Source: Craspedostauros australis
Lineage: Eukaryota
Assembly (NCBI GenBank): GCA_030167865.1
Contig: JALAGF010005422.1
Span: forward strand, 1 to 32,659
Reading direction: 5' to 3'
Length of the DNA: 32,659 nucleotides
The notes under the pieces are model-generated. The model had not been told where the DNA came from and did not search any database. It was given only the letters and a program-made list of their open reading frames with translations. Shown piece by piece: positions 1 through 30,921 of this stretch (position 1 is the first letter of the stretch; every line of letters starts with the position of its first letter). Both the position numbers and the translations under genes were made by a program.

Positions 1-145
1 ATTCGGTCACCGGTCAATGGGGACATGAAGGGAAAATACCAATTTTCAGCAATTTTTCAGTGACATCATGGTATATTGCAACTGATCTGCTTTCTCCCAA
101 TCGTCCTCGGACTCGTCCACACATCCCACTGGACGCAACCATGCC

Positions 146-3100
146 GTGTCACGCACAACGAAAATCAAACGGCCTTCGGTTCTTCCTTCCACATGCCACT
201 ACACCAACGACATGCACTTCACCCACTTCCGCAAAGCCTTCACCGCATACCTCGTCCCCTTTGGTATGGGATACTTACTGGACTCCGACTTCGCTGTGGC
301 CTATCAAGCTTCTGGGCGCAACGTGCTCAATCGATATATTGACCCCTTTTACGAAGGACATTTGCCTTTCGACCACGTCCAACTCAAGTCTGACGTAGCA
401 CTGCTGGCCCGGTTCCTTGGTGAAGCACTTGCAACAAGCAACATGACGTATCTCTTGCGAGGTCCGCATGAGCATGATGGTGTCTTTATCTGGCGCGACC
501 TCATTGCACACAACGACAATGACACCAAAAAGTCAACTCGGGCTGATGCACTTCGTACACGCCTGGATATACCTCTTGGTCCACAAGATGACATCATCCA
601 ATATGTTCAAGACTTCCGTGACACTCTGCTAGCCTTCAATGACGAGACCGACCGTCAACAGGACAAGCTTGACGATATTGCTGCATCCCGCATGCTCCTA
701 TACAATATCAGGGTCGCGCAAGTATCCACTTACGACAATTGGGCCGACTTGGTGCGTACACGAAAACGTCGCCCAACCTTCATTGGCACATGCGAGTTCC
801 TTATTGCTCGAGCCACCGAACAACGAGCCGCTCAAGAACGTGCACACAGCCGTCAAGCACGTCCACGCAACCGCACCAGACATGCCAATCAAGCCATGAC
901 TATACCTGGAGCTCTGGCCTCCGACTATGGTGCTGTTCCGCCGGAGGTGACCTACGTTGCCAACCTCATGGAATGTACTCCACGACATGCCGAAACGTTG
1001 GTTTTCGCTGCACGACCCCATGTCGAAGCCACCGAGCGTGACGCGACGTATATTGATGGCGATACTTTCCGTCGACTACCCGCCGATGTCCGACGTACCG
1101 TCCGCTTCCTACGCCAACGCATTCGACAACTGCAGCAACGATCCGATGGCACCACAATACCGCCCACGTCTCCAGTGACGGATCGTGGAGAAGTTTGTTC
1201 GCCTCAACCAAGTCCAGCTCCTGGAGCTAAAACTGATACAACCGGCACACCAATGGCCATGCAGTACAACCTTGGATACGCAAGGCAAGGGGTCACATGG
1301 GAGGATCAGCGTCCCAACGCCCTCTACGATTCGTACACGACACATGGTGATGCAATGTCTGATGACAATTCTACCGACGATGATCTCGATGATGCTACCA
1401 CGTTCCAACTGTTTATGGTTCAAGCGAAGTACACGGAAATCCATTTGGCACCGACGTCCATCCAGGACAACTGCCCCACCGTGACTTCTTCCCACCTCCA
1501 TGTCCATGCCGCGGCCAACGACATGAACCAACCTGCATACGCCATCAGTGACAGTGGTGCACAATGCTCCATCCTGGGAAGCCTAGGTGACGTGTGGCAA
1601 GTGGAGAACGTGGACATGACACGGGTGATCAACATCATCGGAGCCATTCCGTCATCCATGCGCAAGAACGGACTTCGTGTGGTCTCCGCAATCACCAAGG
1701 CCACGCTTTCCAATGGCCAGCAGGTCCTCCTTCAAGCCCACGAGTGCGCCCTGAACCCGAAGAGTAGAGTCACGCTACTCTCCGAATTCCAGATGAGGGA
1801 AGCTGGATGTGTCGTCGATTCTGTGGCCAAGCATCATCTCCGTTCTATGAACCCAGCACAGTACGGAACACAGTCCTTACAGCCTGCTCCGGATGTGATC
1901 ATTGATATGGTGACTCGCGACGCACTCATGACGTTTGACATCGAGGCGCCCACTCCTGAAGACCTGAATACCCTGGCCGTATACGTTATCACCAAAGATG
2001 AACGCTGGGAACCAAGAAAACACGTTCATCCAGTTGATACGGTTGTCCCACTAACGACCGCTGTGACCACGGTCAACCACAAGCAACAAGCAGAGCCTCC
2101 AGGCAATGTCACTTCAACATTTGGTGATCCCCCTACCATGTCCGTGGCACACATGACACCCTCCAACGACGTTGTCAGCACTGGCGCCATCCATTGCTCG
2201 GATTCCATCTTCGATTTCAGTCAACCGTATGGATTCACCAATCACCGTGTGACCAAGGCGCTCATCACCCAACCACATACTCTGTGGACACCCCAACACC
2301 CTGATCCTCAGCCAGATGACTCCACCGCGCCTGTTGACAACACCAAGACCAACTGGAAAGATGATGTCTCTCAATACGACGATCTATCCGATGCCATCCA
2401 CAAACAACACCAACAAGCTATCGCTGACACACAAGGCAACGATGCAAAGAATGCTCATGACGTCGGATTCCGTGTCAAGGCCAGACATCTCGTGGACGAC
2501 CCAGTCAAACTTCAACCATATCTGGGATGGCGTAACCTTCGTATCATCCGCGAGACCATCAAACGCACAACGCAAGATTGTAAAGCCGTGGTTCGATGGC
2601 CTATGATCAGGCATTTACGCTCCCGATTCGCATGGATGCGCCGCCCTCGCATCAGAGAAGTGGTTGCTACGGACACGTTCTTCGCCAATGCGCCATCATA
2701 TGGTGAGAACTACACTGCGGCTCAAGTATTCTTTGGTACATCGTCTCATGTGCTCAACATCATCGGCTTGCGTTCCAAACAACAGGTGCATGATGCAATC
2801 AACCACTTCATACGTGAAACAGGAGCGCCGTGGGCCTTCCGTATGGACAACGCCAACGAACAGACTGGGGAGAAGGTGGATGCCATCCTTCGCGAGCTTT
2901 ACATCGGTGTCGAGCTTGCTGAACCAGCCACACAGAACCAGAACCCGGCTGAACTCCGTGCCGTCAAATGGATCAAGGCCAACGTTCACATCATCCTTGA
3001 TCGGTCCGGAGCACCTCCACGTGCCTGGTTCTATGCGGCTAAGTACGCCGTCGACATCCACAACATCACAGCAGATCAATCTCTCTGATACAACATTCCA

Positions 3101-6073
3101 TTGACCGTCCGTCATGGCGAAACCATCGACATCTCTGCCTTCCTCTCGTTCAAGTTCTATGAGAAGGTGTACTACCATGATCCGTCGTCAGTGTTCCCTG
3201 ATCCAAAGGAGAAGACTGGATATTGGCTTGGGGTTGCGGATTCGTGCGGCGATGCTCTGACGTACCTCATCCTTGCTGACTCCAATCAGCGTGTACTCGT
3301 TCGCAGTGTTGTTCGACCATGTCGTCCGCACAGGTACAACGAACGCCTCAGCTTTCACAAGGAGCTCGATCCTGATCGTACCTATCCTCCACCGGATGTC
3401 CCTCTGATCCTTGACGACCACCGGATCCCGATCAATCGCAAACTGCAACAGCACCGAAAACCCCCTCGCCCGCGCGAAGCTTCACCTACCACGGCTCCAC
3501 CTGTCACCGATGTACCAACCGTCGTGCACACACCGGTCAGTCCGCGAGTACCAACGCAAACAACTCGAAGCCCTGGAGTTGCCGCAGGAAAAGGGAGGGT
3601 TCCTTTACCTCCATGTGCTCCGACTCGTCGTTCCAAACGCATCAAGGACCGTGGTAACACCACCCCATGGAAGACCAAACTTAGCAAGACCCAGAGCAAG
3701 CAAGTTACAATGACCGCGCTCACGCATGGTGCAGAAATCCAACCGAGCCCTCACCTCGTCCTAGGAGCCCAACACCCTATTGGCAGTGGCATCGGACATC
3801 ATGGCGTGCTGCACCTTGTCACACCACTTCCATCTGATGAACATCTCCCGAATCTTGCTCCTCGTCGCATCCGTTCCGATTTGAACACCAGTGAAGAACA
3901 CCACCTCCTATGGGTGACCGTGGCAGACATCATCATGGACAAGACCGAAGACGATACCATTGGTCCACAGATGGACATGACCGCTGTATCCATCACACAG
4001 CACCAGAACCAGCTTGTCATGGTGAACTGGATGGATGGCTCCCGTAGTTGGCACCACATCGATGAGATTCGTTTGCAAGCCCCAGATATTCTGGCTCAAT
4101 ACGTGCAGGATAATCGGCTTGACGATGCGATCAACTTCACATGGCTGTCCAACTTCCGCCAGACATACGACCGTGCCCTTGCAGCCAAGGCCCAAACAGC
4201 AAAAGCCACGACCAAATACAAGTTTGGTATCCAGGTCCCACGCAACACACGTCATGCGCTGTACTTGGACCGTCTCAACGGCGACCGACAATGGAGACAA
4301 GCCATCGACAGAGAGCTAAAACAGATCAACGAACATGGGACCTTCCGTTGCCCCACCAAGGATGATGACCTCAATACCTACCAGTGCATCCCATACCATG
4401 TCATCTTCGACGTCAAGTTTGATCTCCGGCGAAAAGCTCGTTTGGTTGCCAATGGCAATATGTCCGACCCATCTGTCGAAGACGTCTACTCCGGAGTCAT
4501 TGCCTACGAGACCATGCGCATCGCATTCGTTATCGCTGCCATCAACGGACTCCAAGTCTGTGCTGGTGATGTGGGCAACGCATTCCTGTATGCCAAGACC
4601 AAGGAGAGATGCTATGTCATTGCCGGCCCTGAGTTCAGTCCACTGGAAGGACAACCACTCATCATACACAAGGGATTGTATGGCCTCCGGACGTCCAGTG
4701 CTCGTTTTCATGAACACCTAGCCCAGACGTTTCGTGACCTTGGGTTCCAACCCACCGCCTATGATGCTGACCTTTGGATTCGACCACAAGAGGATCATTA
4801 CGAGATGATTGCGTCATACGTTGACGATGTCCTTGTGTTCAGCAAGAATCCAATGGCTATCATGAACATCCTCAAGGAAAAGTATGTCATGAAAGGTGTT
4901 GGTACACCCATGTATTACCTCGGAGGCAACATTGAGCAACTGGATGAAGCGTGGCAAAAAGAAGGGATTTTCACCGCACTATCAGCTCAAACGTACATCG
5001 CAAGCTCATGTGAGAAAATGGAGCAACTCCTTCAACAATCACTTCCACGCCACGCAACACCCATGGCCGAGACCTACCATCCTGAAGTCGACGACTCCCA
5101 ACTACTGGATAAAGGGGCGGCAAGCAAGTTCAGAACACTGGTTGGATGTGCCAACTGGATCATTACGCTTGGTCGGTACGACGTGCAGTACGCCACCATG
5201 GCCCTCTCACGTTACTCCATGACGCCACGCATGGGTCACATGAATGCCATGATTCGAGTCTTTGGGTATCTCAAACACAACCAAACCGGCCGATTGCTTT
5301 GTGATCCTACTCCACCCAATCATTCCAAGTACCCCAAACACGAGAGCGACAAATGGAGAGAGTACTACCCCAATACACACGAAGCAGTGCCACATCGAGT
5401 GATCCCACCCAAAGGGAAGGACGCCAAGATCACAGTGTACGTTGATGCTGATCATGCTCACGATCTTGTCACGCGCCGCTCTGTGACAGGCATCATCGCC
5501 AAGGTGAATGGCATGGTCGTCCGGTCCTACTGCAAACGCCAACGTACAGTAGAGTCTTCAACCTATGGATCTGAGCTCGTGGCGGCTCGCATTGCGGTTG
5601 ACATGATCGTCGAACTCCGTACAGCACTCCGTGTCATGGGAGTCCCGGTCGATGGACCCGCCCTCCTCCTCGGCAATAACAAATCTGTTGTTCTCAACAC
5701 CTCGATCCCGTCCAGCGTGCTCAAGAAGAAACATTGCGGCGTTGCATACCACCGTATCCGTGAAGCCATTGCAGCCAACATCGTCCAATTCGTCCACATC
5801 GATTCATCTGAGAATGAAGCAGATATTCTTACCAAGCCTGTCTCGAAGTCAACGTTCTACCGGATTCGTCGGATGTCTTTGTTTCGCATTCCACAACATC
5901 TCGTACAGACCAAAGAAGCCACGACGACACAACCAGCTGAACCTGACGCAGCACCTCCTATCCGACCCATTGTCACTGCGTTTGTGACTATCGATCAGCC
6001 CACGCTTGGTGGCAGATTCCAACATGCGCTGAAGGGGCGTATTGGAGCGAAGACACCACCCGAGTCCAAGTAG
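146..6073 (+). pseudogene. gag-pol polyprotein of element A, disrupted by an in-frame TGA at 3086-3088
   Basis: ORFs 146-3088 and 3101-6073 share one frame (…ADQSL*YNIPLTVRHGETIDIS…). Motifs: protease AISDSGA (D at 1550); integrase ATDTFF (2672), MDNANEQ (2846), QNPAE (2951); RT KARLVA, GDVGNAFL, LYGLRTS, YVDD (4817); RNase H YVDADHAHD, STYGSELVA, NEADILTK. The frame continues upstream through TGA stops at 83 and 26. Confidence 0.93.
6029..6039 (+). other. Polypurine tract of element A
   Basis: CTGAAGGGGCG directly precedes the LTR. The identical 11-mer precedes element B's 3' LTR on the minus strand (6400-6390). Confidence 0.85.
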
Positions 6074-6117
6074 TCGGGAACACAGCAACAGACTGCAACA
6101 GACAGCAGAACGAAAAC

Positions 6118-6389
6118 TATTGAAACGAAAGTGGTGTCAAGTGATGGTGAAAGGATCGTCTGAACGGGTTATGACCGAAGTCTTTGTTTTTGTTTTGGGC
6201 GATCTCGTTTGTGTTTGTCTTTTCTTCGTTTCGCTGCTGTTTCGCTGCTTTGCTGCTGCTTTGGTCTGTGCGTGGTGTGCGCGTGGTGTGCGCGTGGTGT
6301 GCNCGTGCCTTCGATCTTTGACACGTTCGGTTGCTGTTCTGCTTCCCTACCGGTTTGTGGCCGACCCGCTTGACCACTTCTCTTCATTA
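6118..6389 (-). repeat. 3' LTR of element B (272 bp)
   Basis: On the minus strand it begins TAATGAA after the PPT and ends TTCAATA against the TSD. Contains a three-copy 11-bp tandem, CGTGGTGTGCG, at 6271-6303. Confidence 0.9.
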
Positions 6390-6808
6390 CGCCCCTTCAG
6401 GGTATGACGGGGAGTATACACGTGCGTAGCCTGATACACATGTACGAATGCATGGACCATGTTGTCATGTGATGTACTTGCGGTTGGCTCAGCTGGCAGA
6501 ATCTTCGTCGTCTCCTTGGCTTTCTTCAGGTGTGCAGGTGCTCGGAATATGGACATCCGGATGAGGCGATGGAAGACGGCTTTCGACACTGGTTTCGTGA
6601 GCAGGTCAGCTTCATTGTCGTGTGACGTGATGTGGAGGAATTGCACGGCTCCTGCTGCGATGGCTTCCCTGACACGGTGGTAAGCGATGCCACAATGCTT
6701 CTTCTTGAGGACGCTTGACGGGATTGTCGTATTCAACACCACAGACTTGTTGTCACCAAGTAGGATCGCAGGTTCAGGGATGGGAACGCCCAGTACGCGC
6801 AGTGCCGT
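6347..6808 (-). CDS. C-terminal RNase H part of element B pol (partial, runs out of the gap)
   Basis: TALRVLGVPIPEPAILLGDNKSVVLNTTIPSSVLKKKHCGIAYHRVREAIAAG…NEADLLTKP aligns with element A RNase H and keeps the GDN aspartate. Confidence 0.92.
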   Translation of the reverse strand, partial: TALRVLGVPIPEPAILLGDNKSVVLNTTIPSSVLKKKHCGIAYHRVREAIAAGAVQFLHITSHDNEADLLTKPVSKAVFHRLIRMSIFRAPAHLKKAKETTKILPAEPTASTSHDNMVHAFVHVYQATHVYTPRHTLKGRNEEKWSSGSATNR

Positions 6809-6858
6809 NNNNNNNNNNNNNNNNNNNNNNNNNNNNNNNNNNNNNNNNNNNNNNNNNN
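6809..6858. other. Assembly gap (50 N)
   Basis: Run of N inside element B. It is too short even for the missing 51 nt of the 5' LTR, so its length is nominal. Confidence 0.99.
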
Positions 6859-7079
6859 TTATGACCGAAGTCTTTGTTTTTGTTTTGGGCGATCTCGTTT
6901 GTGTTTGTCTTTTCTTCGTTTCGCTGCTGTTTCGCTGCTTTGCTGCTGCTTTGGTCTGTGCGTGGTGTGCGCGTGGTGTGCGCGTGGTGTGCGCGTGCCT
7001 TCGATCTTTGACACGTTCGGTTGCTGTTCTGCTTCCCTACCGGTTTGTGGCCGACCCGCTTGACCACTTCTCTTCATTA
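6859..7079 (-). repeat. 5' LTR of element B (partial; its 3' end is in the N gap)
   Basis: Direct repeat of 6169-6389 at offset 690. Similarity ends exactly at 7079, where the AAAAC TSD begins. Confidence 0.9.
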
Positions 7080-7838
7080 AAAACAAAAAGGAGCAACAAA
7101 AGCAATCGAATCAACACATCAAGCTCACAATCCCAAATCGATAACTTAGTACACATCACTTCATACCAAAGACATCCACGCTTCAATACTCATGGTGTGT
7201 TACAAAGTACGCGTACACGTGATACATGTATTAGAATAGTATGGTACTACCTGTTATACGTGCCAATAGAGTAGCTTGTATGGTCGTACCCCAATAGACC
7301 TGATCACCATCTCTCTCGACAGGCACCCGCGTGATCGTAGCACTGCGAGTGCAGAGACAAGGATTGTCACACCTGCGCTCGAGAGTGCTCGTCCTGATAC
7401 ATGTCCCTGTATGCGCATCCAGCAAAGCAACGCGTCCTTGCGACAGCGAAGCGCAGGAGGACGAGAGGATACGAGCCACCTGCGATGTATGGGAAGATGT
7501 GATGACGATATCTTCACGCATTGCGCCACACCATGCCATGCCATGCCATGCCATACGAGCTGGAGTCGAGAGCTGTAAACACCATGCCGTGTCAGCGGAG
7601 TGTCGTCATAGTTCATTGTTTCATAGTCCCAGCATAATACATACCATTGCATCCGTTGATTCACGGCACAGCAACGACGAGGCGATCATCACCTTCACGC
7701 ACTCGCGCTCCCACTCACACTGCTGCTCTCGCAAATCACAACCTATACTCGTGTGCGCATTCTGTTTGTAGGGGAGGGATGCCCCCATTCACAAACATGC
7801 CCTCGTCCTTCAACAGCCACGTCTGCCACCAATCTATT

Positions 7839-15046: not shown

Positions 15047-17902
15047 TCATGAAGGGCTGGCGTCAGTTCCTGTGGTTTTTGTTGTTCCAGCTTTTGATGT
15101 CTTTGTCTTTACTGTCGTTGCTGCTGCCGCCGTCGCTTTTGCCCGGGGACGCTTTGCTCGCGACGTTGCTCGTGATTTTGCCGTCATCTTTTGTTTCTGC
15201 TGCTTCTGCTTGTGTCGCTTTTGTTCCTCCTTCACCTCCCTGCGCTGATGCATAGCGTAATGGTTTTGCTGTTGCTGTTCGCTCTTCATGATGGTCAAAC
15301 ACCCAAGGTAGTTGCATGTCCTGTACTTCCAGCCAGTTTTCTTGTGACGGTTGAAGCGCACTGACTGGTTGGTGGCCTCCTTCTCCAAGAACAGGTGCTT
15401 CCAGTCCCACTGCTCAATCGACAGTGCTGGTGTCGGCTTGCCGGATGACAACGCTTTGTCCATGCACCCAAAACGATGTTTGTACACATGATGCCAGAAC
15501 CAGTTCGATTTGGTGGAGCAATCATTCCACACCTTGCACACTTGGAATGCGCAATACAGAGCGGCCGGCTCGCAGTACACGAGGATGTGCTGTAGCATCT
15601 CGGCTGGCATGCCCTTCCATAGATCGTTCGGGACAGGTAGTGTTTGCTCGGATTCGATTGCCACTCTCCCATCTGCTTCTGGTGCGGATTTTCTGTTGCA
15701 CGAAAGCAACCCATCAAATATATCCAGCTCTTCGCGGCGAGCCGCATCCCTCATTCCCAAGCTGTCGGCGAAAGGCCACGCACCTCCGACTTTCGTGGGT
15801 GGCTTCTCAACATCTCCGACGCTGCCTCCGCCAACAGCATCGTCGTCGTCGTCATCATCATCATCAGCAGCAGTATGATCTTCGGAAATGTCTAGCAGAC
15901 CGATGATACTTAAGCGTTGCAACGCACGCAATATTTTCTGCCGAGATTCAGACTCGGGGGGATTGGAGGGTATCCATAATGATGGCGAACTGTACACCAC
16001 TGCGAAATGGTTGGCATACCTCCAGATTGATGCGGTGATGGCGTCTTGTTCGAGCAAGAGCTGCGATAGGCGGCGAGATAGAATATGGGCAACTGCGAAT
16101 CGGCAGGGTGACGAGCACGGCAGGTTCCTCGTTTCTGCGGCAACTTTTGTCTCTGTCTCTGCCTCTGCTTCTACTCTTCCTCTTTGTTCCATCGCAGAGG
16201 CTTCTGGAGATGAGGCCTTGATGGATTCTAGTAGCGGTCGAAGCGCGTTGTAGCATCGTTGACGACAATCAAAAGCAGAACATTCGACGATCCACTCTGA
16301 GAATATCCGAAGATACTCCCACCGCCCGCATCGTTGATAACAGTTCCAGCATACCGATGCAATCTGTTCGCATTGAAAAGGCCTGCGCTGTACAGACAAC
16401 GCCATGCATAGACGCATACTCGGCGACGTGGCTCTTGCTGCCACCATTTGCACGATTTGGTGTGGCCAGATTGAATCATTTTGAATCCGAGCGGGGTGGG
16501 ACGAATGGCGCAAGATGGAATGGTTCCTGACGAAGCAATCCTGCAGTTTACGATATGCACGTGATCGAACTGCTCCAATTTGTTCCCACAGTGACGTTTG
16601 CGCGTTCTGAGTCGCGGTGATGATAGATTTGTGTGTGCTGCCACTCGTGGCCCTGTTCCCTGGCACAGGTTCGTTAATGATGGCCTTCAATGATATGGAA
16701 GGCGATTGTCGTTGTGCGCCCCAAAACTGTCGCTTGAGCCTTTGCTCGTGTAGGCTCATGGCTTCGCCATCATGGATGTCGGAGAGAGTGATCTTCGTCC
16801 GTTTTTGTGGCCGATGGGGCGAGTGGCTCATGCTTGCCCCTGTCCTTGCCTTCGCCTTTATGTCTGCCTTCGTCTTGCGGCCGCTGTCCGTCTTCTGGAG
16901 GCGCACCCAGACCTTGGAAGTCGATGGCAGACTTGCAAGATCGAATGCCGATGCACTTGTATTGATGGGAAGTCTTTGGTGAATCTGCCAATCGTCTACA
17001 GTCGTTGCGACCTCCATCAGCGACTCGATGATCTGCAGGGCGATTGCTGGCGTGCATTCTTCATGCAAAAAGTGAAGCACTGAGATGAGACGATGCATCT
17101 GGCTTGGCCATCGTCGAGTCTTCCGTTCGTCCTGCGCCTGTGTTGAAAGCAACCTGGCGTCTCGAATGAAGGCAGACGCAATGCCATTCAGCCGAAGCGA
17201 AGGGGTCGCGTTTACTATCTTTTTGATGGAATGCAGCAGAAGGTGCTGCGATGGGGTCCACCTTGTGAATTGCGTCTGAAGACCGCTGGAGCCCGATGGC
17301 GGGAACATGGATGATGAACTTGTCATGGAGTCCAGTGCAGGCACGACGTCGCCCCGTTGTCGACGCATCCGAGGTGACGAAGTCAAAACTTGAATGAAAG
17401 TTTGAACCAAGTGTGGGCGAAAAACGTAGGGGATCACAGCTGGATTTAACAGAGTATCGATGAGGGCGCGCAGAGGGTTGTGTGCTGGACTCCCCCTTCG
17501 CGAGTGCTTGTCGTGAAAGTCGCAAAGCTGCATCCAGTCGACTGACAGAAGTGCTTCGTTCAGCTCATGTTCGCAGCCTCTCTTTCGTTTTCGTCCGACT
17601 GTGTCGCTGGCGGCATTGTCTGCGTACCAATGCTTGCCTCCCTTCATCATCGCGTTGCTCGTGTACTTGGTTGACGTCGGACTTCTCCTGCTGGTGCGGA
17701 ATCGGCATGGATCCATCACCAGGTTTTTCACGCAGGTGGTTAAGTTGTCCACATATGTCTCGTACGTTTCCGATTGAAATGTGCGCAGCGATGCCGCGGC
17801 AGCGAGCTCAGCAGCAGAGCATCTCTTCTCTCGATCGCCCTGGCCAGCGCTCCTGGTCACGCCCATAGAGTCACGATTATGATTGCCTGCAGCCAACATC
17901 AT
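15047..17902 (-). CDS. Large protein with a C-terminal F-box and C2H2-type zinc finger (~951 aa from first ATG)
   Basis: 2.9-kb ORF. F-box-like LWKGMPAEMLQHILVYCEPAALYCAFQVCKVWN…FWHHVY, then CNYLGC-x12-HYAMH and a Lys-rich tail. RKRKR NLS-like motif near the N-terminus. Start codon uncertain. Confidence 0.8.
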   Translation of the reverse strand: MMLAAGNHNRDSMGVTRSAGQGDREKRCSAAELAAAASLRTFQSETYETYVDNLTTCVKNLVMDPCRFRTSRRSPTSTKYTSNAMMKGGKHWYADNAASDTVGRKRKRGCEHELNEALLSVDWMQLCDFHDKHSRRGSPAHNPLRALIDTLLNPAVIPYVFRPHLVQTFIQVLTSSPRMRRQRGDVVPALDSMTSSSSMFPPSGSSGLQTQFTRWTPSQHLLLHSIKKIVNATPSLRLNGIASAFIRDARLLSTQAQDERKTRRWPSQMHRLISVLHFLHEECTPAIALQIIESLMEVATTVDDWQIHQRLPINTSASAFDLASLPSTSKVWVRLQKTDSGRKTKADIKAKARTGASMSHSPHRPQKRTKITLSDIHDGEAMSLHEQRLKRQFWGAQRQSPSISLKAIINEPVPGNRATSGSTHKSIITATQNAQTSLWEQIGAVRSRAYRKLQDCFVRNHSILRHSSHPARIQNDSIWPHQIVQMVAARATSPSMRLCMALSVQRRPFQCEQIASVCWNCYQRCGRWEYLRIFSEWIVECSAFDCRQRCYNALRPLLESIKASSPEASAMEQRGRVEAEAETETKVAAETRNLPCSSPCRFAVAHILSRRLSQLLLEQDAITASIWRYANHFAVVYSSPSLWIPSNPPESESRQKILRALQRLSIIGLLDISEDHTAADDDDDDDDDAVGGGSVGDVEKPPTKVGGAWPFADSLGMRDAARREELDIFDGLLSCNRKSAPEADGRVAIESEQTLPVPNDLWKGMPAEMLQHILVYCEPAALYCAFQVCKVWNDCSTKSNWFWHHVYKHRFGCMDKALSSGKPTPALSIEQWDWKHLFLEKEATNQSVRFNRHKKTGWKYRTCNYLGCLTIMKSEQQQQNHYAMHQRREVKEEQKRHKQKQQKQKMTAKSRATSRAKRPRAKATAAAATTVKTKTSKAGTTKTTGTDASPS

Positions 17903-18679
17903 CGCGGCATTCCACGGCAATCGACGGCAATCCACTTGTACCAACACATGCACGTTCGTGAGCACGTATGCATGAATGCACGCTCTCGCTTCAGTCTGTC
18001 TCTAGCTCTCTCTCTCCCTCGCCCGCACGCGCCGTGATCTCTTGTGCGGATCTTTTCGTCGAGAATCGGATCTTCTTTCACGCTGCTGCTGCTGCTACTG
18101 CTGCTGCTGCTGCTATCGAAAGATAGCTCGTACGAGGAGATCCGACAGCTTGAGCTGACCAAGGAAAGCGTGAATGTGGACTACATGTAATCTAACCCAC
18201 GAGCAGATCGGTGATGCGCAGAGTACGTATGATAATGTCGACACTCCTTGTGTGGTTTCGGGGACCTGTGGATTGCTCTGACTCGTACCTCGCACCTTGT
18301 GCTCTGTGTGGATGGGTTGTGGTGGGAGACAGACAACACACACATCAACGACGTGGTGGTTGCGAGTTCGTGATTGAGACGACAGACACAGTACATGGTA
18401 TCGTATCAGCGGTCTCACAAATTCGACCAACCAATTGTCAAGGGCTGGGCCGGAAACATGAAGATACCATGAATGAGGTAATTGTTCGTTCCACGTCTCA
18501 AACCCAACGCACACAATAACACGACTGGCGCAGACAACAACGAATTCCCGATTATCCGCCCAACATCAACTTGCTCGGACCGCGAGCTGTGGTGTGGTGG
18601 CATCCGTCTTGGATGTTGTCGCCGTCCAGTCACAACCGCAGTCGCGACCAGAGAGCGAGAGAGAGAGAGAGAAGAGACG

Positions 18680-19762
18680 ATGGGCGGGGGGCAGAGCAAG
18701 AAGGCCGAAGAACAGTCGTTGAGGCTGCTGCAGTGCTCCATCGATGGAGATCTGAGGGAAGTCAAGCACATCATCGAGACGTACTTGGAACACCAAATGA
18801 AAGGGAATGAAAGTGGCAACGACAACGACAACGACGGCCATATCAGTGACAATGGCAGCGGCGGTGACAGAGTATCGCACGTCAAAGCGTTTGTAAACAC
18901 GTCTGATCCCCAGGGTAACACAGCCCTGCACGGCGCCGTCTTCTCCGGACACATGGACGTGGTGCGGTACCTAATCGAGGAATGCCACAGCGACATCGAC
19001 CAGCAGAACGGACTCGGTTGCTCGCCCACTTGGCTTGCGGCCGGATACGATCGATGCGAGGTCTTGCAGTACTTGCTGAAGAGGCACCCCGATCCCAAGT
19101 CGGCTTTGCTGTCGACTGTTGCGGCCAACAAGACGGGGGACACACCGCTCGTGGCAGCAGCATCGAAAGGCAACGTGGCAGCGTGCCAGTTGCTCAAGCA
19201 GATGGCGTCGGAACTGGATGTCCCGTGGGGCCAGATGGTGCTGCGTAGGAATAAAGGCAACGACAACGCCTTGAACGTGGCCATTGCCGGCGGTCACAAT
19301 CAAGATGAATTGCTGGATCCATTCCTCGCCGAACTGTCAGGCGCCGATCTGGATGAACCCAACACAAAGGGCCTCTCGCCCTTCCTGATTGCCAGCGAGC
19401 GCGACGATGTTAAATTGGCCAAGAAGCTTTTGAGCAAGGGTGCTTCGTGGAACGTGCAGGACTCGAACGGCTCGTCGCCGCTGAGCATAGCAGCATTTTG
19501 CGGCAACCCTCACATCATCAAAGAAGTGCTGCTGCAGAAGGAGGAGCTGCGGGATAGGCAAAACCGCAACGGGTGCACGGCGCTCTGGTTAGCGGTCAGG
19601 GCAGGCCGCCCGGAAGTCGTGGACGCGCTGCTGGAAGGTGGGTGCGATCCTTCCATCTCCAACAAAGACGGGTTATCCCCACTCGATGCTGCCAAAAAAT
19701 ACAAACGCGATGCCATCGCGAGGCTTTTGGAGGACCATATTGCCAGCAATCCAACAGAGTAA
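18680..19762 (+). CDS. Ankyrin-repeat protein (~360 aa) with N-myristoylation motif
   Basis: Repeats GNTALHGA, GCSPTWLAA, GDTPLVAAA, NDNALNVA, GLSPFLIA, GSSPLSIAA, GCTALWLA, GLSPLDAA. First ATG gives MGGGQSKK. Confidence 0.93.
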   Translation: MGGGQSKKAEEQSLRLLQCSIDGDLREVKHIIETYLEHQMKGNESGNDNDNDGHISDNGSGGDRVSHVKAFVNTSDPQGNTALHGAVFSGHMDVVRYLIEECHSDIDQQNGLGCSPTWLAAGYDRCEVLQYLLKRHPDPKSALLSTVAANKTGDTPLVAAASKGNVAACQLLKQMASELDVPWGQMVLRRNKGNDNALNVAIAGGHNQDELLDPFLAELSGADLDEPNTKGLSPFLIASERDDVKLAKKLLSKGASWNVQDSNGSSPLSIAAFCGNPHIIKEVLLQKEELRDRQNRNGCTALWLAVRAGRPEVVDALLEGGCDPSISNKDGLSPLDAAKKYKRDAIARLLEDHIASNPTE

Positions 19763-20320: not shown

Positions 20321-20980
20321 GTTCCCTCCGTTTGCGATACCTTGAAATTAGTGGTTGTTTTGTCGCGGTGCTGAGTTGCTGTGGTGTCGTTCATCGCAGA
20401 AACACACAGCAGCGCAAAGCGTGAAACACACACAAATCACAAATCACAAATCGCTGACAACTGGAAGGCAACGTTTCTCACCTCACAACCACCACAAACA
20501 CAGACACAAGCACAAGCACAACCATAAGAGCAACCACAAGAGCAATTCAAGCCCAAGACATCAATCATCATCCAATTTTCCACATTGCCACCAGATCAAC
20601 AACAGTGAGTCGAGAACAAGAGGAAAGCGAGCAGGAACGCCAAAGAGGAGGTGCTGCTGTTGGCGATGCGGGGATTTGGGCGCCTCACCCCATTTTATGC
20701 TTCCGACAGCGTGCGTGTGCATCGTTCACACATCTGATTGCTCACCGCCTTCCTACCTTTCTCTGCCTTCATGGTATGGCGCTGCTGTCCTCTGATCCGG
20801 ACCGTTTGTGCTGCTTCCTATACTATACTATGATATTATTTTATATTGTATGACACCATGGAACATTGTGTTGTCTCGCATTACGCTGGACAATGAATTG
20901 ATAACCGCATTTGCGTTCATCAACCAAACACACAAATACTTGCCCTGCTATAAAAACCACAAGAACGAGCAAGCACAAAC

Positions 20981-22918
20981 ATGTCGCTGACACAAGATGG
21001 AGTACGCACGATCATTGGGATGGAAAAGGGAGCAGACAACCCTGGGTTCCAGCCAATTCTGCAGGCGATCAGTGTCAAGCCCGTGTCGAAGGGCAATAAC
21101 GACAGATTCCGCGTCGTCCTGAGCGACGGAGCGCACTACATCCAGGGCATGCTGGCATCGCAGATGAATCACCTCGTCAAGAACAACGAGCTCAGGACGA
21201 ACAACCTCATCTGCATCAAGAACTTCATGAACAACGCAATTCAGGGACGCACCGTCACTATTCTGCTTGAAATCGAAGTGGTGGGCAACTCTGATGAACG
21301 TATCGGGAACCCAGCGAACATCGAGAAGGCAGGCAACGCCGCGTTGAACTCGGCCACAGCTGCGCACCAAAAAACACCAGCTGTTGCGCCAATGTATGGA
21401 TCCGGAGGCGCATCCGGCGCTGCTCCGAGCAGGCCAACGGCAACGCCGCCTCGAGCACCCTCATCGTCAGCATCATCTGCATCGCGGAGCAAATCGAATC
21501 CCTACGGATCGTCCAGCCCGTCTCGCATGGGGACGTCACGAACCCCCATCGCACGCAGCACCACCGCGAACGGCACGCCAATCACATCCATCGCTTCCCT
21601 CAACATGTACCAAAACCGATGGACCATCAAGGCGCGCGTCGTGTCCAAATCGGACATCCGTTCTTGGAGCAACTCCAAGGGTGAAGGCACGTTGTTTTCG
21701 GTGGAAGTGCTGGACTCCTCCGGCACCGATGTCAAGTGCACCTTCTTCCGCGAGGCCGTGGAGAAGTTCTACAACATGCTCGTGGTCGGCAGCGTCTTCA
21801 CGTTCTCCGGCGGACGCCTGGGCGTCGCCAACAGGAGGTACAACAGCTGCAAATCGCCACTGGAAATCACGTTCGATCAAAACGCCGAGATCCACCTGCA
21901 GGATGATGCCGATGACATCCAGGCGCAGAGCTTCGAGCTGGTCAAGATCGCCGACATCGAGACCGTGGAGGCGAACAAGACCGTCGACGTCATCGGAATT
22001 TGCAAGGACCCTGGGGAAGTCGTCAGCTTCATCGCCAAGAAATCGGGGCGCGAAATGACGAAGAGGGACGTCGAGATCGTCGACGACTCCACAGTGCAAA
22101 TCCGTGTGACGCTGTGGGGCCAGGACGCCGTGAACTTCGATCAGCAGTGCGAGATTGGCAAGGTTGTCGCATTCCGTCGCGCCAGAGTCAGCGATTACGG
22201 CGGCAAGACGCTGAGCGCATCGAGTGGCGGCACCATCATCGAGCCCAAGGTGCCCGAAACGGCGCAGCTCCAGCAGTGGTACAGCTCCAATGGTGGTGCC
22301 AACATGACGGCAAAGTCGCTGTCTAGCTCCGGCGGTACTGGAGGTCGCATGGACAGCTTCGCGGACCGCAAGGTCATCTCTGACATCAAGTCTCAGAACC
22401 TCGGCATGAACAGCGAGAAGGGTGACTATTTGTCCTTCAAGGGACACTTCACGTTCCTCCGAAAGTCCAAGGAAGGCGGCGCGTGGTACACAGCGTGCCC
22501 CAACCCGAAGGATCCCTGCCGCAACCGCTGCAAGGTGTCGCAAAACACCGAAGGCAGCTGGCAGTGTGATCGGTGCTCCGGTACCTACGCCACTTGTGAC
22601 CGCAAATGGATCTTCTCTGGCATCGTGACAGACGCAACGTCGTCCACGTGGGTTTCGATCTTCGACGAGCAGGCAACGCAGATGTTCAACGGTGCCACAG
22701 CGAACGATGTGTTTGCGGAGTACTCCATGAACCAAGACGCATACGACGGGCACTTCGCTCGCGCGAACTTCACGGAATGGATCTTCAAGTGCCGCGTTCG
22801 CAACGAGATGGTCAACAACGAACCTCGATTGAAGACGCAGGTTGTGAGGATGGACCCAGTCAACTACGTTCAGGAAAGCAATGACATGCTGGCAGCGTTG
22901 GAGAAGATGAAGGTGTAA
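20981..22918 (+). CDS. RPA1: Replication protein A 70 kDa subunit
   Basis: N-terminal OB fold (RFRVVLSDG…MLASQMN), low-complexity linker, DBD-A (LNMYQNRWTIKARV…GEGTLFS), DBD-B (VDVIG…VTLWG…VSDYGG), DBD-C with Zn motif (WYTACP…CKV…WQCDRC). Intronless CDS, 645 aa. Confidence 0.97.
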   Translation: MSLTQDGVRTIIGMEKGADNPGFQPILQAISVKPVSKGNNDRFRVVLSDGAHYIQGMLASQMNHLVKNNELRTNNLICIKNFMNNAIQGRTVTILLEIEVVGNSDERIGNPANIEKAGNAALNSATAAHQKTPAVAPMYGSGGASGAAPSRPTATPPRAPSSSASSASRSKSNPYGSSSPSRMGTSRTPIARSTTANGTPITSIASLNMYQNRWTIKARVVSKSDIRSWSNSKGEGTLFSVEVLDSSGTDVKCTFFREAVEKFYNMLVVGSVFTFSGGRLGVANRRYNSCKSPLEITFDQNAEIHLQDDADDIQAQSFELVKIADIETVEANKTVDVIGICKDPGEVVSFIAKKSGREMTKRDVEIVDDSTVQIRVTLWGQDAVNFDQQCEIGKVVAFRRARVSDYGGKTLSASSGGTIIEPKVPETAQLQQWYSSNGGANMTAKSLSSSGGTGGRMDSFADRKVISDIKSQNLGMNSEKGDYLSFKGHFTFLRKSKEGGAWYTACPNPKDPCRNRCKVSQNTEGSWQCDRCSGTYATCDRKWIFSGIVTDATSSTWVSIFDEQATQMFNGATANDVFAEYSMNQDAYDGHFARANFTEWIFKCRVRNEMVNNEPRLKTQVVRMDPVNYVQESNDMLAALEKMKV

Positions 22919-28803: not shown

Positions 28804-30921
28804 TCAAACCTCAGTCGATGACGATCTCTGCGAGCGTGGAGTCATTGTCTCCATCTCCACTTCTGCTCGGGGAGATGTCGGTGCGGCCAATGGCAGGGAT
28901 TGCGATGATGCCGGTGGCGGTGTGTTGCTGCGCTGCGATAGTGGAGCAAAGCCTCTGCCCGCAAACACATTAAAAGGACATCGTGCTCCTCCGCCGCTTC
29001 GGCTCGCCCCGCTCAGTTCCGCATCGCTGCTGGACTGTGAATCGTCGGACACTGCGGACGCCTGTTGTTCCGAATGCGCCATGATGTGGGCGAGCACGTC
29101 GAATTTGCACAGTGGACAGTTGGGGTGTCGTTCCGTGAGCCAAGGCACGACGCAATCGCCATGGAAGCGGTGGTTGCATGGGAGTACTTTCACCATCTCG
29201 CCTTCCTCGAACGTGTCGAGGCAAATTGCGCAACAGTGCGCGGATCCGAGCATGTCATCGTCGTTGCCGTTGTCACCATTTTCGTTCGCGTTTTCATTGC
29301 TGTTGTTGAGTATACTCGCGCTTGTATCGATTGCTCTCACAGTGCTTGGATCCGTGCGTGAACCTTCATTTGCCGATGAGTCAAGGGTGTTGCTGTTGCT
29401 GTCACGGTCGCTATCACAGTTGCTTTCCAGATCAATACCAACACCCCCAACTTTGTCAGCACCATCGATGGCGGCAACGACAACGTTGGTGTTTCCATCC
29501 AAGGAGTTGCTGGGATTTCCACCTTGCTGCAGTGATGGTGTCGACGGCATTGGTGTCTTGGATGCTCTCGTTGCTGTACGACGAGTGGTACTCGTATCTC
29601 CACTCGTGGTTTCGGCGTGGAATGCTTCCTCCTTCAACGTTGCCACTTGTGCTTCGGTCAAGACGCCGGATTGAATCATGCGCCCAACGATAGGAATGTT
29701 TGATCCGCGCCTCCCCGTCACAATGAACACCCGTCCTCTCGCATCCGTGCGCAACGAGATGAGTCCGGTTTGTGCGCACAGGAGTATGCAGGCAAAAAAA
29801 AGCATGAAGGCCAGGAATCCCATCAATGCGGCAAGAAGGTATCCCGTCAGTGACAACCTCCCTGCTGCAGCTGGGTCGAACATGGGAACTCCATCTAGCT
29901 CGACCATAATCCCCTCGCTGACGCCGTCCGTTGCGTTGGCCTGTTTGCGGATCTCACGTCGAAGTTCTGTCCTTGCCGTTGGCGTTAGGATTCGTCATGT
30001 TTGACGTTGGCCGGTTGAGAGTTTGTGAGGTGGGCGAAAGGCACAGGGGAAAGGCGTTGTTGGAGTAGGCAGGAGAGCATCAGGGAGTGTGAGAGTGGTG
30101 GAGGCAGCAGGAGGAAAAGATGGGGGAAGGCAAGTGCTCCAGAGTATGCTCTCTATTGGTAGAGAGTATTATGGTATTATGTATTGCAATGACGAGTTCT
30201 CGGATATTGTTACATCAGGGTGTCGGTCATCAGACTCCACACGAACAACAGCTTGCTTGGTGTTATCGAACAACCAAGCACACAGAGCAACGTCTGAGAT
30301 TGACTTACCCATACCCGATGTGTATGAAACGAACAGCGGAGCATTTCCCTTCAACGCCGTGTCACTTCCCATGATGGTCAGATCATCGTTGGGCTTATCG
30401 TCGTAGATTATAACGTATTGGATGGAGGCTGACAAGGCGTAGGCCTGCACCGCCTTCTCCAAGAATGTGCAACCCTTTCGTTCCACCAGTAAAGCGATTG
30501 GAACGTCGCCTGTTGTGGTGGGAGACATAATGCTGGGAGGAATTCCGCCTGTGTGAGCATCTTGACTGCACATGCGAGGACGATCCTCGATGAAGTGCAG
30601 ACGAGCATGTTTGTAGATGCCCTTTTGCCATTGCGTGCCAAAGACCGCTGGGAGGCTAGCAAATGATGGATTCGCCGTTGCATTTGCATCAGTGTTGGTG
30701 ACGTTGTTGCTGTGGCTTTGGCTGTCGCTTCCGGGGGTGATTCCTTTCAAGATTGTCACAGCGGCATCAGTCGTTGGTAGGCTGAAGAGCATGGCGATCG
30801 AAAGGAGAACCACAAGGGCGCATCGGAGAGGCCTGCTGTTGTTCCTGCTGCGATTGCTTTTGATGAGTTTGCCTCTGATTGTGCGGCGTCCGCACATGGT
30901 GTGACGTGCAGCGATGGTCAT
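28804..30921 (-). CDS. PA-TM-RING-H2 E3 ubiquitin ligase (RMR/RNF13-like; 2 exons, ~591 aa)
   Basis: Exon 30921-30309 (hydrophobic signal; PA domain PAVFG…ALLVERKGCTFLEKA…VIIYDD…FVSYTSG; donor GTAAGT) joins in frame to exon 29966-28804 (TM YLLAALMGFLAFMLFFACILLC; RING-H2 CAICLDTF…LPCNHRFHGDCVVPWL…CPLC). Confidence 0.92.

Follow-up and report, generated by a model that had tools for sequence, protein, structure and literature searches.

Are the TA...TA ends of two nested long terminal repeat (LTR) retrotransposons an accident of single copies, or are they the rule of a lineage? The question is raised by a 32,659-nucleotide stretch of the diatom Craspedostauros australis (the window; contig JALAGF010005422.1, from its first base; G000:C5422:1-32659 in our numbering; host genome 66 Mb). 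It holds two Ty1/copia elements, A and B, with B inserted in the 3' LTR of A. Its RPA70 gene fits a diatom host: among 120 protein hits, the nine that show an organism name are all diatoms. Few features of LTR retroelements are as conserved as a terminal CA. Direct reading confirmed the statement of the first-pass annotation that both LTRs begin and end with TA. We consider it probable that A and B belong to a CoDi-A-like Ty1/copia clade whose cDNA ends are TA...TA, and that these ends were fixed from tolerated changes of single ends. What was observed directly is that the ends are TA, that 5-bp duplications adjoin them, that LTR pairs are identical and hence recently inserted, and that the trait spans the clade.

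The pol region of A spans positions 86-6073 of the forward strand and is interrupted by one in-frame stop. The first part (86-3088) comprises the rest of gag, the protease, and the N-terminal part and catalytic core of the integrase (D-D-x34-E, no HHCC). It ends at an in-frame TGA (3086-3088) within the integrase region, so this copy of A is broken. The second part (3089-6073; match to PF07727, E 1.4e-21) comprises the C-terminal part of the integrase, a putative degenerate chromodomain, the reverse transcriptase (RT) and RNase H, and its frame continues into the LTR. The polypurine tract (PPT) of A (6029-6039, forward strand) abuts the first 78 bp of the 3' LTR (6040-6117, start TATTGG), whose last five bases (6113-6117) are the target site duplicated by B. 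Element B lies on the reverse strand. Its 3' LTR (6118-6389, 272 bp, TA...TA) and its PPT (6390-6400), identical in sequence to that of A, were read directly. They are followed by the end of the B pol with RNase H (6392-6808), 63% identical to A at the protein level, and by an assembly gap of 50 N (6809-6858), which covers most of the B interior and the right end of the B 5' LTR. The visible 221 bp of that LTR (6859-7079, TA start at 7079) are 100% identical to the 3' copy. After the second copy of the duplicated AAAAC (7080-7084), the A LTR resumes for its remaining 104 bp (7085-7188, ending CAATA), followed by CTCAT (7189-7193), the 5-bp target site duplication (TSD) of A. The perfect AAAAC duplication reported for B was thus found as described.

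Since the window begins at base 1 of its contig, the 5' LTR of A does not lie upstream within it. We found it on another contig (C1417; locus L021): 182 bp, uninterrupted and 100% identical to both halves of the 3' LTR. It is preceded by CTCAT, as had been predicted, followed by the primer site, and carries a single AAAAC, the empty site of B. All uninterrupted A LTRs (L021-L023) carry AAAAC only once. What links C1417 to the window is the identical LTR sequence, the shared 5-mer and gag segments that complement each other (residues 8-126 versus 276 onward of a relative). No exact end overlap between C1417 and the window was found, with unrelated-looking sequence on both sides of the break, and joining the two by overlap was dropped.

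The tabulation of genomic LTR copies called for by the first-pass annotation extended the TA ends to nine LTR families. The B LTR had 19 matches in the genome and the A LTR had four. Further families came from an RNase H search of the same genome (150 scored among 432 candidates). Their LTRs start with TA behind the same PPT, a motif found at this place in every TA family. We then used one LTR of each family to query all loci fetched from this genome, with an identity filter of 80% (L015, at 74%, fell below it): the left end was TA in 45 of 45 copies and the right end in 45 of 46. The seeds of this count were TA LTRs; patterns that allowed TG and CA equally therefore count for more. A pattern of LTR end plus primer site gave TA at 13 of 13 hits (reversed control: 1). 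A pattern of PPT plus LTR start gave TA at 53 of 56 hits and TG at three (control: 6); 30 of these 56 loci were fetched, and of the three TG hits, the two that were read have no RT nearby.

The TA ends also integrate cleanly, as had been claimed for B. A perfect 5-bp TSD abutting the TA ends was present in six of eight single-contig cases: B, an uninterrupted element on contig C4526 and four solo LTRs (L022, L023, L006 and L008). A tandem pair (C6244) was excluded from this count. Among the 5' LTRs with a readable flank, seven of 11 have a 3' partner carrying the same 5-mer. The middle base of the duplication was A or T at 12 of 13 TA-clade target sites. The C4526 element has 170-bp LTRs that are 100% identical and a single frame of 2254 codons, meaning that TA ends were integrated recently.

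The A and B LTR bodies were described as unrelated. This holds for the pair itself, which is not alignable (local scores 21), and not for the clade, where intermediates bridge the LTR families: B matches C484a at 94% over 35 nt, and C484a matches C484b at 74% over 112 nt. In two cases, a TA-clade element was seen inside the LTR of another: B in A, and a solo A LTR in the 3' LTR of C484 (L022, L033).

A scan of metagenome contigs added 79 loci (best 80 of 586). In an RT-RNase H tree of 74 rows, A and B fall in a clade of 38 rows (SH-aLRT, a Shimodaira-Hasegawa-like branch test: 99). Rows with neither end readable or with fewer than 300 columns were omitted, and L217, which holds two elements, was kept out. 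Loci L054, L067, L068 and L071 are in neither this tree nor an earlier one of 67 rows, being either a duplicate of L040 or without RT. The earlier tree included two Phaeodactylum tricornutum proteins, both of which were placed outside the TA clade. Among the best 120 protein matches (50-66%), no organism-named protein was found.

The ends differ between the two groups in the tree. At the left ends of the 24 metagenome rows of the TA clade, there were 15 TA, four TT, four doubtful first matches, one missing and no TG; the right ends before the Ile primer site were TA in nine, AG in one, AA in one and CA in none. In the 31-row outer clade, the left ends were TG (15), TA (4) and TC (1), and the right ends CA (16), TA (4) and AA (2). 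We re-read both ends at 26 loci. In the TA clade, this gave seven TA...TA, one CT...AG and one TA...AA, with four unresolved; the outer group gave seven TG...CA, two TA...CA, three TG...TA and no TA...TA, with one unresolved. First-match PPT calls were doubtful for L148, L155, L156 and L210, of which L155 and L156 were resolved on re-reading, and the primer hit of L223 was in the wrong place. These counts describe related sequences and not independent events. Within the TA clade, RT-RNase H identities drop to about 50%, and the LTR bodies have diverged past alignment. With nine families in one genome and a 38-row clade, TA...TA is a lineage trait and not a one-off mutation, as the first-pass annotation had supposed. 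In one metagenome member of the clade (L156), the ends CT...AG lie in a perfect inverted repeat of 8 bp, bounded by PPT and primer site, on a contig that gives no TSD.

Downstream of the 5' LTR, the primer site is complementary to the 5' half of the tRNA-Ile(AAT) encoded in this genome; the pairing stops at tRNA position 40 (numbered by hand). Position 34 of the anticodon faces a C, the partner expected of an inosine (L113-L115 and next to every 5' LTR). The match is 14 nt long in the metagenome members and in family X, and 11 nt in the C4526 element. Both primer site and PPT lie immediately next to the LTR, an arrangement consistent with blunt cDNA ends like those of Ty1. By analogy with Ty1/copia biology, the minus strand would start from the tRNA-Ile 5' half (inosine anticodon) adjoining the right LTR end, and the plus strand from the PPT adjoining the left LTR end. 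The cDNA would then be blunt, and the integrase would join ...TA-3'OH without trimming. The templates of the two ends lie in different LTRs, so that either end can change without the other. Judging from the TA...CA and TG...TA elements of the outer clade, the integrases of CoDi-A may already have accepted T in place of C as the penultimate base; two such changes would have been fixed in the ancestor of the TA clade. That TA was kept afterwards, with no CA seen, may reflect a later retuning of the integrase. A second kind of primer site was seen after the LTR in outer-clade metagenome loci, in L069 and in L067 and L068 (derivatives of family S). We infer that it is the complement of the tRNA-Asn anticodon arm.

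The main alternative is pure drift. CoDi-A integrases would be indifferent to the second-last base, the TA-clade integrase would be unchanged, and TA...TA would merely have been inherited. We regard this as rather less probable than not; the integrase itself provides part of the case for it. The usual integrase has an HHCC motif and a D-x35-E spacing, as Ty1 integrase does. In A, the D-x34-E spacing and the lack of HHCC noted in the first-pass annotation were confirmed. An alignment with the integrase of mouse mammary tumour virus shows a one-residue gap in the catalytic loop. The second Asp is 34 residues from the Glu column in all 48 rows with both columns filled, whatever the end type. The motif is present in 113 of 120 full-length homologues; of these 113, 101 have the D-x34-E spacing and none has an HHCC-like pattern. 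Both features are also common to the P. tricornutum relatives. The suggestion that they go with TA ends did not survive: both occur with all end types, including in TG...CA relatives, and they were rejected as the cause. Drift is further favoured by the several origins of TA at single ends outside the clade and by the CA...TG, CT...AG and TT ends in the wider group. In addition, lotus elements with different ends are intermingled on an integrase tree (PMC9804982). Against drift, no CA was found in the TA clade in spite of RT-RNase H identities of about 50% and LTR bodies beyond alignment, and the outer clade keeps CA at 16 of 22 right ends. Both observations suggest that selection acts on the ends within each clade.

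One integrase feature does follow the clade. A single extra residue directly after the catalytic Glu was present in 17 of 49 rows, all of them in the TA clade where placed (one is in no tree). A structure model (predicted local distance difference test score 82, predicted template modelling score 0.81) supports the core fold and two N-terminal helices. The predicted core resembles a typical integrase core (template modelling score 0.70-0.72 to that of prototype foamy virus), and the model is silent on DNA contacts. In the model, the extra residue would sit in the first turn of the alpha-4 helix. In the integrase of human immunodeficiency virus, S153, the residue after the catalytic Glu, alters LTR preference, as do K159-V165 on the same helix (PMC3185514). 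The extra alpha-4 residue may thus be regarded as a candidate determinant of end preference, and not as a requirement. The idea that it is needed for a TA end was rejected, as outer rows without it have TA at one end.

Several observations weigh against our preferred reading. As a single inherited event, the extra residue would co-vary with TA by descent alone, and the rows lacking it with TA at one end are six (L171, L180, L195, L182, L196 and L201). The TA clade also contains CT...AG (L156), TA...AA (L158) and four rows with TT starts. In the genome, the one right end that is not TA is an 83% fragment ending in TG (L018); the TSD has a mismatch in L010 and is absent at C484, whose LTRs are 74% alike. 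The primer match of A and B is 7 nt, followed by a bulge or mismatch, and 7-11 nt in the A subclade. At metagenome loci, the PPT defined the left end and the primer site the right end, on contigs that give no TSD. Finally, the trees were built by quick searches with SH-aLRT as their only support measure, and their root is arbitrary.

The remaining alternatives fare far worse. An assembly artefact, with the second B LTR copied by gap filling, would fit the 50-N gap adjoining a 221-bp copy 100% identical to the other. It is very improbable and was rejected, as the A LTR resumes at the duplicated 5-mer (junction 7079/7080) and the same ends are found in solo LTRs and in a gap-spanning full element elsewhere. 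Even less credible is that the elements really end at a TG...CA pair lying 3 nt further in, with the outer bases being target sequence or untrimmed overhangs. Such a pair, TG at positions 4-5 and CA at -5/-4, is present in A and in several B copies. However, each resolved insertion has its duplication directly against the outer TA, and the inner pair gives no duplication (as already noted in the first pass). Moreover, five B copies have CG in place of the inner TG, which is absent in family S and most metagenome relatives. The empty site in the other A LTRs shows exactly five duplicated bases, which refutes the inner boundary.

A process like repeat-induced point mutation (RIP) makes TG-to-TA and CA-to-TA changes. 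That the ends were TG...CA at insertion and were changed later by such a CpA-to-TpA process or by deamination would match the expected changes, and is equally incredible and was rejected: dinucleotide ratios show no RIP-like shift (TpA/ApT 0.40-0.57 in elements versus 0.47 in host DNA; (CpA+TpG)/(ApC+GpT) 1.05-1.22 versus 1.32), TA is present in elements whose LTRs are identical and whose reading frame is long and open, and another family in the same genome (L069) retains a CA right end.

By domain order (protease, integrase, RT, RNase H), copia-type RT, two LTRs, primer site, PPT and 5-bp TSD, A and B are Ty1/copia elements. They depart from the usual TG...CA ends, which, given published exceptions, are a usual and not a defining Ty1/copia trait, and from the usual integrase motifs. 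Pattern search found neither a CCHC array nor a GPY/F motif in A and an uninterrupted relative, and CCHC was found in none of the 120 homologues. The markers of CoDi-A in file 3 of PMC2774666 are a lack of CCHC and of GPY/F, a chromodomain, and a protease LPIV motif (5 of 7 listed members). In A, there was no Pfam match to an integrase or a chromodomain. However, a profile of the aligned segment after the integrase scores A at 3e-15, compared with 1e-14 to 2e-6 for three Pfam-confirmed chromodomains and 0.14 and 1.5 for two controls. The chromodomain of A is, as judged from sequence, degenerate. In three relatives (P0013, P0016 and P0055), a second, canonical chromodomain (PF00385) lies upstream of the group-wide degenerate one.

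The likeness to CoDi-A (CoDiI; CoDi2-4, 7) thus includes domain order, the lack of CCHC and GPY/F, the chromodomain-like segment, short LTRs and a diatom host (PMC2806351, PMC2774666). A difference is the protease motif, LRVV in A and not LPIV, which is found in 27 of the 120 homologues and as the alignment majority. The closest named relatives are P. tricornutum proteins (42-43% over RT-RNase H). We call A and B CoDi-A-like on the basis of these markers, the earlier tree including only two P. tricornutum proteins without a CoDi name.

The TA dinucleotide itself is not new for copia. TA...TA ends were published for AtRE1, and a survey of 50 plant genomes found only the first T to be invariable (Ou and Jiang, bioRxiv 10.1101/137141). 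In lotus, TATA copia elements number 154 copies with a mean LTR of 229 bp, or 0.41% of the lotus copia copies, and the authors weigh integrase co-evolution against recent mutation (PMC9804982). Like the elements described here, AtRE1 (compared by description only) and the lotus elements are transposition-competent TA...TA copia with short LTRs. In those plant lineages, they form a minor and mostly intermingled class, whereas the deep clade described here has TA...TA as its norm. Plant Bianca elements share the half tRNA-Ile primer with inosine at the first anticodon position (Neumann 2019, PMC6317226); the likeness to this plant lineage is limited to the primer. Ty1 shares the 5-bp duplication and blunt cDNA ends, inferred here, but its integrase is reported to need TG...CA: an AC end abolished substrate use (PMC2939329).

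Diatom ends without TG/CA are also on record. In Maumus 2009, three of 26 CoDi families (CoDi3.2, 4.2 and 4.3) lack TG/CA (PMC2806351); they may or may not end in TA...TA and so may bear on novelty. No description of TA...TA ends in diatoms was found in the open-licence literature (Repbase and GyDB were outside this search), and the excerpts of PMC8147415, bioRxiv 10.1101/2025.10.24.684338 and PMC4139406 contain nothing on diatom LTR ends. We did not find in print a deep clade with fixed TA...TA ends, single-end intermediates or a linked integrase insertion. A clade with fixed TA, sister-group intermediates and a marked integrase insertion makes the co-evolution question testable with natural proteins.

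The same genome also holds a distant copia family (G000:C5068, L072, and L116-L145), whose RT-RNase H is about 40% identical to that of the TA clade. Its LTRs run CAA...TTG, that is, CA...TG. With 30 of 40 matches read, the starts agreed in 29 of 30 (one truncated) and the ends in 30 of 30. Perfect 4-bp TSDs were present in all eight single-contig cases (4/4 whole solo LTRs and 4/4 single-contig elements). The family shares D-x34-E and the Ile primer with the TA clade. It shows that the end sequence is unusually free in the wider group, and it violates the plant rule of an invariable first T. A broader, speculative reading, to which we would give somewhat less than even credence, is that CoDi-A integrases, without HHCC and with a catalytic loop one residue short, escaped the CA-3'OH rule. 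Sub-lineages would then have re-specialised on TA...TA (with the extra alpha-4 residue), on CT...AG, and on CA...TG with a 4-bp duplication and a last base G. If so, diatom copia would be a natural series for mapping integrase end recognition, a large share of which is absent from motif-based annotation.

The practical effect concerns annotation. As the first-pass annotation warned, finders that require TG...CA would miss these elements: such runs would lose no fewer than nine TA families of this genome, together with one CA...TG family. LTR_retriever has an optional non-TGCA module with seven motifs (bioRxiv 10.1101/137141), and CA...TG is outside these motifs, the survey having found the first T invariable.

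Two minor structures were seen among the elements of this genome. Derivatives of family S on contigs C5417, C3242 and C4466 (L067, L068 and L071) have TA...TA LTRs with a 9-bp terminal inverted repeat and one long frame with protease- and RNase H-like parts, without integrase or RT; they are probably non-autonomous. Tandem elements sharing an LTR, in which the 3' LTR is directly followed by a primer site, occur on C6244 (L040, L054) and C4353 (L069). The rest of the window contains ordinary host genes between 15047 and 29994: an F-box-like gene (15047-18001, reverse strand), a gene with ankyrin repeats (18482-19762), RPA70 (20954-22918) and a RING finger gene (28804-29994, reverse strand).

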